A stretch of 64,000 bases of DNA from Candidatus Iainarchaeum sp. (GTDB lineage: Archaea > Iainarchaeota > Iainarchaeia > Iainarchaeales > GCA-2688035): NCBI GenBank assembly GCA_017610205.1, contig JAFCCL010000005.1:30106-94105 (forward strand), read 5' to 3'. The translations under genes were made by a program, and so were the position numbers. Below are positions 22,231-24,031 of this stretch, one piece after another. Below the pieces are notes generated by a model that made no database searches, was not told the origin of the DNA, and was given only the letters and a program-made list of their open reading frames with translations. Every line of letters starts with the position of its first letter. Position 1 is the first letter of the stretch.

Positions 22231-23481
22231 ATGAAAGCGTTTGTAGAAGGCAGTGGCTGCAGCCTGAATAAGAGTGATACTGAACAAATAAGAGGCTTTT
22301 TGCTGCAGAACAATTTCGAGCTCGTAAGCAAGCCGGAAAGCGCTGATTTGCTTTTGCTCAATGCCTGTGCTGTAAAAGAGCAGACCGAAACCAAGATGCT
22401 TAGGAGAATAGTGCAGTTGAATTCAATTTCCAAAAAGCAAAAAAGCACTCTTGTTGTTTTTGGATGCTTTCCAAAAATAAACCCGCTGGCAATTTCTTCC
22501 ATTTCCAAAAAAATTGTGCAAATAGGCCCATGCCTTGAAAAGCTTGCTTCCTTTCTTGAATTGCCTGAACAAAATTTTTCCCCCGACCTGAACGAAAAAA
22601 AGACAAGCAATTTAATTTCAATTATTCCAATTTGCCGGGGCTGCCTTGGAAACTGTGCCTATTGCGCAGTGCGCAATGCAAGAGGCAAACTGAAAAGCTA
22701 TTCCATTGCACAGCTGAACAAAAAGTTTAAGCAAGGGCTTGAGCAAGGCTGTAGTGAATTCTGGCTTACGGCCCAGGACTGCGGCTGTTACGGTTTTGAC
22801 ATTGGAACAAACATTGTTGCTTTGCTCAAAACACTGCTGCGCAACAAAGGCAATTTTAGGATAAGGGTTGGAATGGCAAACCCTGCGCATTTGAAAAAGT
22901 TTTTGCCAGAATACCTTGCCTTGTTTGAACACAAAAGACTTTTTCGCTTTTTTCATTTGCCGGTGCAATCCGGCAGCAATGCCGTGCTTGAAAAAATGAA
23001 CCGAGGTTATAAGAAAGAGGATTTTTTGCTTATTGTTAAAAAAATTCGCAAACGGTTTCCTAACGCAAGCATTTCCCTTGATTTAATTGTTGGCTTTCCA
23101 GGAGAAACAGAGCAGCAGTTTGAAGAAACACTTTTCCTTGTTGAAAAAGTTAAGCCAGATGTTGTAAACATTAGCAGGTTTGGTGCAAGACCAAATACGC
23201 TTGCGGCTCTAATGCCTGGGCAGCTTCATGGAAGGGAAAAAAAGGAAAGAAGCAGAAAGCTTACTGTTTTATGCAAAAGAATTTTGCTTGAAAGAAACAA
23301 GGGCTTTATTGGTTCAAAGCAGTTAATTCTTGTTGACAAAAAGGGATTGAAGGGAAATTTTGTCGGCAGAAACCAAAATTACAAACCAATTGTGGTAAAA
23401 AAGCCAGTTCTTGGAAGTTTTGTTTCGGTTAAGGTAAAAAAAGTTTTTTCAAATTATCTTGAAGCATCTGTGGCAAAATAA
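22231..23481 (+). CDS. mtaB: tRNA methylthiotransferase (MiaB/MtaB family radical SAM)
   Basis: N-terminal GC..N, NAC and GC cysteines; CLGNCAYC; HLPVQSGS; C-terminal TRAM. Confidence 0.88.
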   Translation: MKAFVEGSGCSLNKSDTEQIRGFLLQNNFELVSKPESADLLLLNACAVKEQTETKMLRRIVQLNSISKKQKSTLVVFGCFPKINPLAISSISKKIVQIGPCLEKLASFLELPEQNFSPDLNEKKTSNLISIIPICRGCLGNCAYCAVRNARGKLKSYSIAQLNKKFKQGLEQGCSEFWLTAQDCGCYGFDIGTNIVALLKTLLRNKGNFRIRVGMANPAHLKKFLPEYLALFEHKRLFRFFHLPVQSGSNAVLEKMNRGYKKEDFLLIVKKIRKRFPNASISLDLIVGFPGETEQQFEETLFLVEKVKPDVVNISRFGARPNTLAALMPGQLHGREKKERSRKLTVLCKRILLERNKGFIGSKQLILVDKKGLKGNFVGRNQNYKPIVVKKPVLGSFVSVKVKKVFSNYLEASVAK

Positions 23482-23549: not shown

Positions 23550-23624
23550 TTATTCTTCTGTTGGTTTTTCAGTTTCTTCACTACTGTCGTCGTCTCCGCA
23601 CCAGCATCCGTGCAAAAATTTCAT
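23550..23624 (-). CDS. 24-aa small protein MKFLHGCWCGDDDSSEETEKPTEE
   Basis: open frame followed by T/A-rich tract; its GGTGA RBS is displaced by the 300-bp element. Confidence 0.45.
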   Translation of the reverse strand: MKFLHGCWCGDDDSSEETEKPTEE

Positions 23625-23625
23625 A

Positions 23626-23762
23626 GTGAACTACCATAACCTAACACCTTTGGCGTCGAGGTTATAGCTTCCTGTTTCATTGATAAGGCTTGCTTTGGGC
23701 TTATACCGCCAGTAGAGGCTTCATCTCTTTCAGGCTTGCATTCGGACAGTTCCTGCCCTATC
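23626..23762 (-). ncRNA. TnpB omegaRNA/reRNA-like scaffold
   Basis: GGGCAGGAACTGTCCGAA..AAGCCTG..GAGA...CAAG...ATGAAACAGGAAGC-hairpin-GTAGTTCAC resembles tnpB 3' ends. Confidence 0.7.
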
Positions 23763-23925
23763 TTACTTTCGTAAGCATTATGTTTATTGTTTTGGTTATC
23801 TGCCAGCACTTTCAGCCTTACAGACAACTTATGTGTATAGGGTTCTTTCTTCTTTATAAGTGTTTTGTTCGCCAATTCATCCACAACCTAACATAGTTCA
23901 GGTTGTGGACTTCTTGGCAATAAGG
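23626..23925 (-). mobile_element. non-autonomous IS200/IS605-family element (PATE-like)
   Basis: left-end hairpin TCCACAACCT..AGGTTGTGGA in CCAAGAAG...GATGAATTGG context; right-end hairpin ending GTAGTTCAC; preceded by TTTAA; no target duplication. Confidence 0.8.
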
Positions 23926-24031
23926 TTAAATCACCTTAATTTCCTTTGTTTTACCTTTTTAAAAACCTTTCTTAAAGCCAAAGTAGGTTTTTTAACAACT
24001 TATGCAGCGATTACTATTAGGGGTTGTTTGA

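Follow-up and report, generated by a model that had tools for sequence, protein, structure and literature searches.

Palindrome-associated transposable elements (PATEs) are IS605-type elements that were defined in Haloquadratum walsbyi as having no terminal inverted repeats, palindromes near both termini, no target duplication and a length too short for a transposase (Dyall-Smith 2011, PMC3119063, in the portion of that paper drawn on here). PATE-like minimal insertion sequence (IS) elements that carry omegaRNAs are described from Geobacillus stearothermophilus, and in the sections of the preprint used here PATEs are said often to encode omegaRNAs that need to act in trans with the TnpBs of other IS elements (Meers 2023 preprint, PMC10055086). 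Here we analyse a 300-bp element of this kind in 64,000 nucleotides of contig JAFCCL010000005.1 of a Candidatus Iainarchaeum sp. assembly (GCA_017610205.1), a stretch that we call the window. We consider it very probable (roughly 85%) that this element arose by internal deletion from a ~1.7-kb IS605-type transposon carrying tnpA and tnpB in series, that it is non-autonomous and PATE-like, and that it retains a structurally complete predicted omegaRNA cassette that is now probably idle. Two further systems serve for comparison. IS608 of Helicobacter pylori encodes a Y1 TnpA and moves by single-strand peel-and-paste, its left end being cleaved 5' of the hairpin, at a distance of some 17-19 nt, and its right end a few nt 3' of the hairpin. 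The solved chains 8bf8_A, 8exa and 8h1j_A are, we take it, the TnpB-omegaRNA nuclease of ISDra2.

Boundaries and ends of the element

When 1201 nt around the 300-bp element were searched against 40 related genomes, both flanks were matched, and were contiguous, in two genomes of the same genus: in G002:C156 over query positions 2-473 (83% identity) and 776-896 (80%), and in G004:C78 over query positions 2-475 (83%) and 762-897 (77%). The centre of the element (query 531-611) was not covered by any match in the 40 other genomes. With a hyphen marking the junction, the empty sites read GGTGATTTGA-TATGAAG in G002:C156 and GGTGATTTAA-TATGAAA in G004:C78, and the corresponding alignment rows are ...AATTAAGGTGATTTGA-TATGAAGTTTTTAT... 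in G002 and ...AATTAAGGTGATTTAA-TATGAAATTTTTAT... in G004, as against ...GGTGATTTAA-(300 bp)-TATGAAATTTTTGC... at the occupied site. Because the empty-site flanks abut, at TTT(A/G)A-TATG, the element is exactly the segment from 23626 to 23925, inserted 3' of TTTAA without duplication of the target, and insertion 3' of a short motif with no target-site duplication is what characterizes IS200/IS605 elements. An earlier note on this DNA, made from its letters, had drawn the same limits, which the two empty sites bear out to the base, and the empty allele in relatives that had been set beforehand as a test is present in both of these congeners.

Read on the minus strand, the locus consists of TTTAA, 17 nt, a left hairpin, ~110 nt in which CTTATAAA is the sole obvious feature, a segment that folds as RNA, a right hairpin and TAGTTCAC, and this agrees with the order that the earlier note had given (TTTAA, left hairpin, TATA-like sequence, omegaRNA-like segment, right hairpin, TTCAC). 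Its choice of TTTAA as the target, or transposon-adjacent, motif (TAM) gains support from the other insertion sites of the element group: scored by eye, TTTAA lies immediately 5' of the left end (LE) at 10 of 16 sites, one of them that of the resident element on C19 of the element's own genome (G000), while two sites (G000:C3 and G004:C85) have TATAA instead and four (G000:C2, G000:C20, G004:C20a and L059) are ambiguous.

Over 60 nt, made up of five TAM bases and 55 LE bases, the left side is identical at 58 positions to the full-length element G004:C15 and at 54 to another, G016:C28. The left hairpin, which is spelled CCACAACCT-GAACTATGT-TAGGTTGTGG, folds as single-stranded DNA (ssDNA) at -10.3 kcal/mol (z = -4.6), a stability equalled by 0 of 200 shuffles, and its stem is preserved in G016:C28 by changes in both arms (CTATAACCT / AGGTTATAG). 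The right-end (RE) hairpin is moderate as ssDNA (z = -2.1; 8 of 200 shuffles are equally stable), and its long form is also found in G004:C15 and G016:C28. The AACCT/AGGTT core that had been noticed in both hairpins is indeed common to them. We also observe AGAAGT and GGAAGC 5' of the two subterminal hairpins. On the right, 15 aligned copies from four genomes all reach (G/A)(T/C)AGTTCA(C/T) and diverge directly after it, which marks the RE boundary; 14 of the 15 end in AGTTCAC and one in AGTTCAT. Subterminal hairpins thus lie at both ends, and the termini (CCTTATT... and ...GTTCAC) are not inverted repeats of one another, as is usual in IS200/IS605 elements. The LE start, both hairpins and the TTCAC end recur in the full-length elements of relatives, and so the existence of other copies with the same boundaries, on which the earlier reading had been made to depend, can be confirmed.

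Origin from a full-length transposon and the omegaRNA scaffold

The parent type is represented by G016:C28, an element of 1696 bp that is composed of TTTAA, an LE, a 150-aa Y1_Tnp protein (123 bits), an overlapping 422-aa TnpB with the domains HTH_OrfB_IS605, OrfB_IS605 and Cas12f1-like_TNB, and an RE ending in GAGTAGTTCAC; the G004:C15 element, of 1701 bp, has a broken tnpB frame. Membership of IS200/IS605 is further indicated by the homology of the ends of the 300-bp element to those of G016:C28, which encodes a Y1 (HUH) TnpA and a TnpB. The parental LE is kept at element positions 1-55, the 3' end of tnpB and the RE survive together as one contiguous remnant, and between these lie two shorter pieces of tnpB (Table 1): a weak patch in which 20 of 21 aligned positions are identical, with one gap, to positions 603-624 of the G016 element, and a 17-nt island. 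The patches are collinear with the parent, and at least three internal deletions are therefore required to account for the 300-bp element. The TATA-like box lies within the weak patch, and because this stretch is coding in the parent the box probably descends from tnpB codons and not from an inherited promoter.

The open reading frame (ORF) of 87 aa that crosses the element was dismissed in the same note as probably spurious. It is not a gene, but its last 39 residues correspond, in the original frame, to residues 384-422 of TnpB and are 77% identical to those of the G016:C28 protein; for this reason we regard it as a gene remnant and not as wholly spurious. This 39-aa tail is all that remains of either gene, which agrees with the earlier statement that the element has no tnpA or tnpB. 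It follows that the element is a non-autonomous derivative and, having no transposase of its own of the kind that makes IS200/IS605 elements autonomous, not an IS in the strict sense.

The 17-nt island AAGGCTGAAAGTGCTGG is near-invariant in nucleotides across all 12 tnpB copies that we compared (L003, L004, L005, L030-L033, L036-L039 and L046), including one that is 38% identical. A conserved RNA hairpin was considered for it and rejected, since inspection by eye revealed neither a convincing stem nor a complement in the scaffold, and we attribute the conservation to the KAESAG protein motif that the island encodes in the parent. We note that the island resembles AAGCCTGAAAGAG inside the scaffold at 11 of 13 bases, a likeness that might favour repeat-mediated deletion.

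The scaffold segment (151 nt) folds as RNA at -45 kcal/mol (z = -2.7), and its 100-nt core matches five other places in the element's own genome: the 3' end of a deleted tnpB on C3 (88% identity over 100 nt), the 3' ends of tnpB ORFs of 410 aa on C2 (86%, 97 nt), 395 aa on C20 (81%, 100 nt) and 391 aa on C19 (78%, 94 nt), and a scaffold fragment on C14 (85%, 55 nt). The earlier note had named similarity to tnpB 3' ends as something its reading could not do without, and four such ends within the same genome, at 78-88% identity, provide it. The segment thus originates, as omegaRNAs do, in the 3' end of tnpB together with the RE, and it ends at the transposon boundary. A covariance model, R1 (137 positions, 33 pairs), was built from 12 tnpB 3'-end copies with the 300-bp element and its two closest relatives left out. 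The omegaRNA model search that had been proposed as a check succeeded: R1 matches the 300-bp element end to end at 123.3 bits (E = 6e-26), and cmsearch flags no non-standard pair. For comparison, the held-out full-length copies with the long hairpin, G016:C28 and G004:C15, score 132.0 and 134.3 bits, the 12 training copies 135.5-159.1 bits and a distant copy in G020:C31 72.4 bits. According to the model, then, the scaffold is structurally complete. When the taxonomic family (23 genomes) was scanned, R1 found 17 matches, spread over 6 genomes. Rfam 15 gave no match at gathering score in the whole 64-kb window, but may hold no model of this type, and the eight weak Rfam matches between 23500 and 24050 (E 0.58-10) all belong to unrelated families and were taken as chance.

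The predicted pairing also covaries. In an alignment of 16 sequences, 96.3% of cells hold standard pairs, compared with 89.0 +/- 0.8 in shuffles, of which 0 of 500 are as high as the observed value, and a control in which partners were slid gave 29.7-39.0% paired. Compensatory change is seen in 10 of the 33 pairs, an example being the GGGCWG/CWGCCC stem (UA 8, AU 7, CG 1). A conserved secondary structure backed by covariation, such as an omegaRNA should have, is therefore in evidence, subject to the caveats about the alignment that we give below.

As all copies diverge directly after TTCAC, the guide should begin at the next base (UAUGAAAUUUUUGCAC...), 3' of the right end, which is where it had been placed in the earlier note. 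TTTAA followed by the first 16 guide bases, TATGAAATTTTTGCAC, occurs at no other site in the element's own assembly with up to 4 mismatches, and the best match of the guide search in this genome is the element's own RE junction; judged from sequence, the empty site of the element is the only match of the predicted guide.

Table 1. Features of the 300-bp element and of the DNA around it, in positions of the window
Feature	Position	Strand	Basis or remark
Whole element: protein-free IS200/IS605 derivative, PATE-like, 300 bp	23626..23925	-	empty sites in two congeners
TTTAA, target motif / TAM, abutting the left end on its 5' side	23926..23930	-	retained at the G004:C78 empty site; TTTGA in G002:C156
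Left end (LE)	23871..23925	-	homologous to LE of full-length tnpA+tnpB elements
LE subterminal hairpin, arms CCACAACCT / AGGTTGTGG	23881..23908	-	ssDNA fold
Weak patch, parent tnpB codons about 68-74 (element positions 56-75)	23851..23870	-	blastn E = 0.019
TATA-like CTTATAAA, inside the weak patch	23853-23860	-	sequence
17-nt island AAGGCTGAAAGTGCTGG, mid-tnpB KAESAG codons (element positions 107-123)	23803..23819	-	17/17 identical to G004:C15, collinear
Remnant of tnpB 3' end plus right end, contiguous, last 164 nt	23626..23789	-	85-86% identical to G004:C15 and G016:C28
OmegaRNA scaffold	23626..23775	-	model R1, positions 1-137 of 137
RE subterminal hairpin, also terminal stem-loop of the scaffold, CTATAACCT / AGGTTATGG	23634..23667	-	ssDNA fold
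RE tip TAGTTCAC; final five bases TTCAC are the end motif	23626..23633	-	aligned copies
87-aa ORF, remnant frame, not a gene	23621..23884	-	no Pfam match; TnpB-tail homology limited to the last 39 aa
Predicted guide TATGAAATTTTTGCACGGAT, host DNA 3' of RE	23606..23625	-	TnpB/omegaRNA rule
Small host ORF MKFLHGCWCGDDDSSEETEKPTEE, 24 aa, Cys- and acid-rich	23550..23624	-	also present, conserved, at the G002 and G004 empty sites
Radical-SAM methylthiotransferase-like neighbour gene	22231-23481	+	UPF0004, Radical_SAM and TRAM
Neighbouring ORF, 263 aa	24032-24823	+	no Pfam match

Partners in the genome and competing readings

The genome in which the element resides (G000) is archaeal, comprises 1.37 Mb in 24 contigs and is 92% complete. 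A search for TBP gave four domain matches in it and, among 14 control genomes, matches only in the 4 archaea; a model of archaeal small-subunit rRNA had no match in the assembly. Three full-length TnpBs, each with the three Pfam domains, are resident: C2 (410 aa), C19 (391 aa) and C20 (395 aa), which are 73%, 71% and 69% identical to the G016:C28 protein, respectively. The RuvC motifs GIDxG, E(N/D)LN and IDRD are present in all four full-length TnpB proteins that were aligned. Over residues 2-350 the C19 protein can be aligned to the solved chain 8bf8_A (E = 3e-41), and chain positions 191, 278 and 361, presumably those of the catalytic residues, are occupied by D, E and D. The RE tip is TTCAC in the resident elements on C2, C3 and C20, and TTCAT in that on C19. 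The search for further copies and partners that the earlier note called for thus had a divided outcome, with three full-length TnpBs found, but no second copy and no close TnpA.

The mechanism that we favour can be set out as follows. An IS605-type transposon inserted 3' of TTTAA without duplication, and at least three internal deletions then took away tnpA and nearly all of tnpB. Decay in situ elsewhere in the lineage and a second protein-free mini-element, both taken up below, lend support to this view, as does the TTTAA at the resident C19 element. Any RNA read in sense across the element, whether begun in the region upstream of the small ORF of the host or at the TATA-like box inside the element, would include both scaffold and guide. 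Processing would turn it into an omegaRNA directed against the empty site of the element itself (TTTAA + TATGAAATTTTTGCAC). A complex of this RNA with a resident TnpB would recognise only the vacated site, in keeping with the role of IS605 TnpB in cut-and-copy homing. Since neither a cognate TnpA nor a further copy was found, nothing is known that could excise the element, and it would accordingly be a relic that is structurally competent but probably idle. In our view it is now immobile and mostly idle, and we are doubtful that its RNA is made and bound by a resident TnpB.

Several observations weigh against this interpretation. Among the seven Y1_Tnp matches in the 92% complete assembly, the closest TnpA shares only 25-30% identity with that of the G016 type. 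Neither a second copy of the element nor another LE was found in its own genome (blastn, word size 7), and a 22-mer across the deletion junction has no match in metagenome_contigs and genome_contigs, from which records of the own genome were possibly excluded. A search of sequencing runs for the locus listed no RNA run, and one DNA run contained a 0.05 share of its sequence words. Compared with the omegaRNAs of the resident TnpBs, the terminal hairpin is extended by about 14 nt, and the R1 score of the 300-bp element is the lowest among 15 close copies. Finally, the covariation alignment was fitted to R1 and has the training set as 12 of its rows; it is made up of related sequences, and in the full-length copies this region encodes protein. 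With regard to copy number, a search of the same genome with the LE-core pattern, allowing up to 2 mismatches, gave ~50 matches, and by eye the hairpin follows only the element's own. PATEs as mobile repeats would be expected in several copies that share a deletion, and this is not what we see; formation in situ is the simplest reading of a single copy with an unmatched junction. The longer terminal hairpin, together with a scaffold that is 78-88% identical to the resident ones, also means that cross-loading onto the resident TnpBs is not assured.

The alternative that fares best, and to which we give somewhat better than even odds, is that the element is an inert fossil, whose scaffold escaped the deletions by chance and has had too little time to decay, and in which no RNA function is left. 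Decay by internal deletion is common in the element group, being evident at four decayed loci in its own genome and three relatives. On G002:C112, for example, an element at the same site as its ortholog G004:C63 has lost its LE hairpin as well as 242 codons at the start of tnpB, and on C3 of the own genome a tnpB with an in-frame internal deletion (197 aa) lies beside a tnpA remnant. The fragment on C14 (G000:C14:59620-59750), which keeps 55 nt of central scaffold at 85% identity (34 bits with R1) but lacks the first stem and the RE and has no tnpB close by, is a further and more decayed relic. That no mobility partner was found, and that the 300-bp element scores lower with R1 than any other close copy, also fits a fossil. 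What fits less well is that it differs by ~15% substitutions from the nearest full-length copies, yet every modelled pair is standard, which exceeds the expectation for free drift. Nevertheless, recombination between subfamilies could mimic such retained pairing.

The converse alternative is an active cassette that supplies a guide in trans: the element would be transcribed, its omegaRNA would routinely be loaded by a TnpB encoded elsewhere, that TnpB would guard the locus against loss after excision by TnpA, and the scaffold would be under selection. The complete scaffold, in whose alignment to the model all pairs are standard, speaks for this, as do the three resident TnpBs with their RuvC motifs, the TTTAA shared with the resident C19 element, the TTCAC tip shared with those on C2, C3 and C20, and the sense orientation of the element directly downstream of the region upstream of the small ORF. 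The concept is, moreover, in print (Meers 2023 preprint, PMC10055086, in the sections used here). A second, independent protein-free mini-element of 238 bp, found in another archaeal assembly (L060, the same as L062), has the same hairpins and TTTAA and also retains more than a bare RE hairpin. Its three-part layout is similar by eye, but its scaffold is shortened, its fold is weak (z = -1.0, with 34 of 200 shuffles as good), and R1 had no match at E <= 10 in five extra loci with the hairpin core, L060 among them. Because of the weak fold we claim no working scaffold for L060, and two examples cannot in any case show selection. With no cognate TnpA found, no excision is known against which the locus would need a guard, and the element is single in its genome. 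Weighing these points, we think an active cassette of this sort unlikely, though it is a reading to be taken seriously.

The two remaining readings involve the host ORF at the insertion, which has counterparts at the empty sites (MKFLYGCCGDDEGGKEETEKPTEE in G002 and MKFLYGCCCGDDDKEETDETKDK in G004) and is followed by an oligo-T tract. The insertion point is one base upstream of its ATG, between the ATG and the ribosome-binding site, and whereas the arrangement AAGGTGAT-N5-ATG is perfect in both G002 and G004, the AAGGTGAT site (23931-23938) is now 300 bp from the ATG. An AT-rich GGTTTTTAAAAAGG, in which a sense transcript might begin, lies 23 nt 5' of the TAM. We also observe that the 87-aa frame runs through the right end and stops at the TGA within CTATGA (23621-23626), where it forms an ATGA overlap with the ATG of the small ORF; such an overlap is typical of translational coupling and may be due to chance. 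In one reading, which combines RNA function and leader and which we consider improbable, the cassette would be transcribed from the region upstream of the small ORF, its omegaRNA would be loaded, in spite of the subfamily difference, by resident TnpBs that share 69-73% identity with the lost cognate, and through the ATGA overlap the small ORF would be translated again. If this were true, a relic with neither TnpA nor TnpB would keep an RNA-guided protection of its locus and restore translation of the ORF that it had interrupted. That the element is nothing but a co-opted 300-nt 5' leader, from which the small ORF is translated by termination and reinitiation through the ATGA overlap, we think very improbable: the element did separate the conserved AAGGTGAT site from the ATG, and the remnant frame does cross the RE and stop at CTATGA, but this support is a matter of position only, no convincing start context is seen for the remnant ORF, and the small ORF is putative and has no Pfam match.

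Other elements of the group bear on how such derivatives are assembled. On C19 of the own genome, an IS200-like tnpA cut by the contig end (G000:C19:121839-122219), which belongs to the seven Y1_Tnp matches, is followed by a hairpin, CTGCCC-CTTCA-CGGGCAG, and a GGTAGTTCAC tip as in tnpB elements, and a distant TnpB element (G020:C31, 38% identical) has an RE hairpin, CTGCCGCTTCAGCGGCAG, that is near-identical to this IS200-like one. By their sequences, end modules and TnpB/omegaRNA modules thus appear to be shuffled between elements. The L063 element (about positions 1940-2904) shares TTTAA and the core of the LE hairpin and has a TnpA of 83% identity, but it combines these with an adjoining TnpB that is only 34% identical to the G016 type, which may be another sign of exchange between a transposase/end module and a nuclease/guide module. 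Two Y1_Tnp genes of the own genome (G000:C10:42188-42532 and G000:C16:52286-52630), which have weak Pfam scores (43 and 39 bits) and near-identical upstream regions that include TTTTTTTAACCTT, probably belong to a separate two-copy IS200-like element. We note that the L064 contig, which has an element of the G004:C15 type, is labelled Chloroflexi bacterium, in conflict with the same-genus placement of that genome.

Comparison with known systems

Both the type of element and the idea of an omegaRNA acting in trans are already published, and the locus opens no new question. What it offers is a base-resolved case of IS605 decay in which the guide-RNA module is kept, for which the empty site, the parent type in full length and several stages of decay are all at hand in an archaeal lineage of small genomes. 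It also offers a compact natural test of the sharing of omegaRNAs among diverged TnpBs, with one orphan scaffold set against three resident nucleases.

The 300-bp element shows all four properties by which PATEs were defined in H. walsbyi, and like those PATEs it arose by internal deletion of an IS605-type transposon (PMC3119063, as far as the part of the paper used here extends). Unlike the many multi-copy PATEs of H. walsbyi, as that text presents them, it is single in its genome, and its host is a small-genome archaeon; the 2011 description, to judge from the same text, also predates the omegaRNA concept. The PATEs of G. stearothermophilus, a bacterium, form part of a set of about 47 related elements for which an active TnpA has been demonstrated (PMC10055086, in the sections used here), whereas our element is archaeal, and is present in a single copy for which no cognate TnpA was found. 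Like them, however, it is a protein-free IS200/IS605 derivative with conserved LE and RE, and the in-trans role that the earlier note envisaged for it is the one put forward in that preprint.

Compared with ISDra2, the 300-bp element has another scaffold sequence, TTTAA as its motif and no nuclease gene. Nevertheless, its guide RNA would combine, as in ISDra2, the tnpB 3' end with the RE, and its predicted guide would come from the flanking DNA. In relation to IS608 the motifs are different, being TTTAA and TTCAC, and no TnpA is encoded in the 300 bp. As in IS608, however, insertion is 3' of a short specific motif and without duplication, and hairpins lie just inside both ends, here at spacings of 17 nt and 8 nt.

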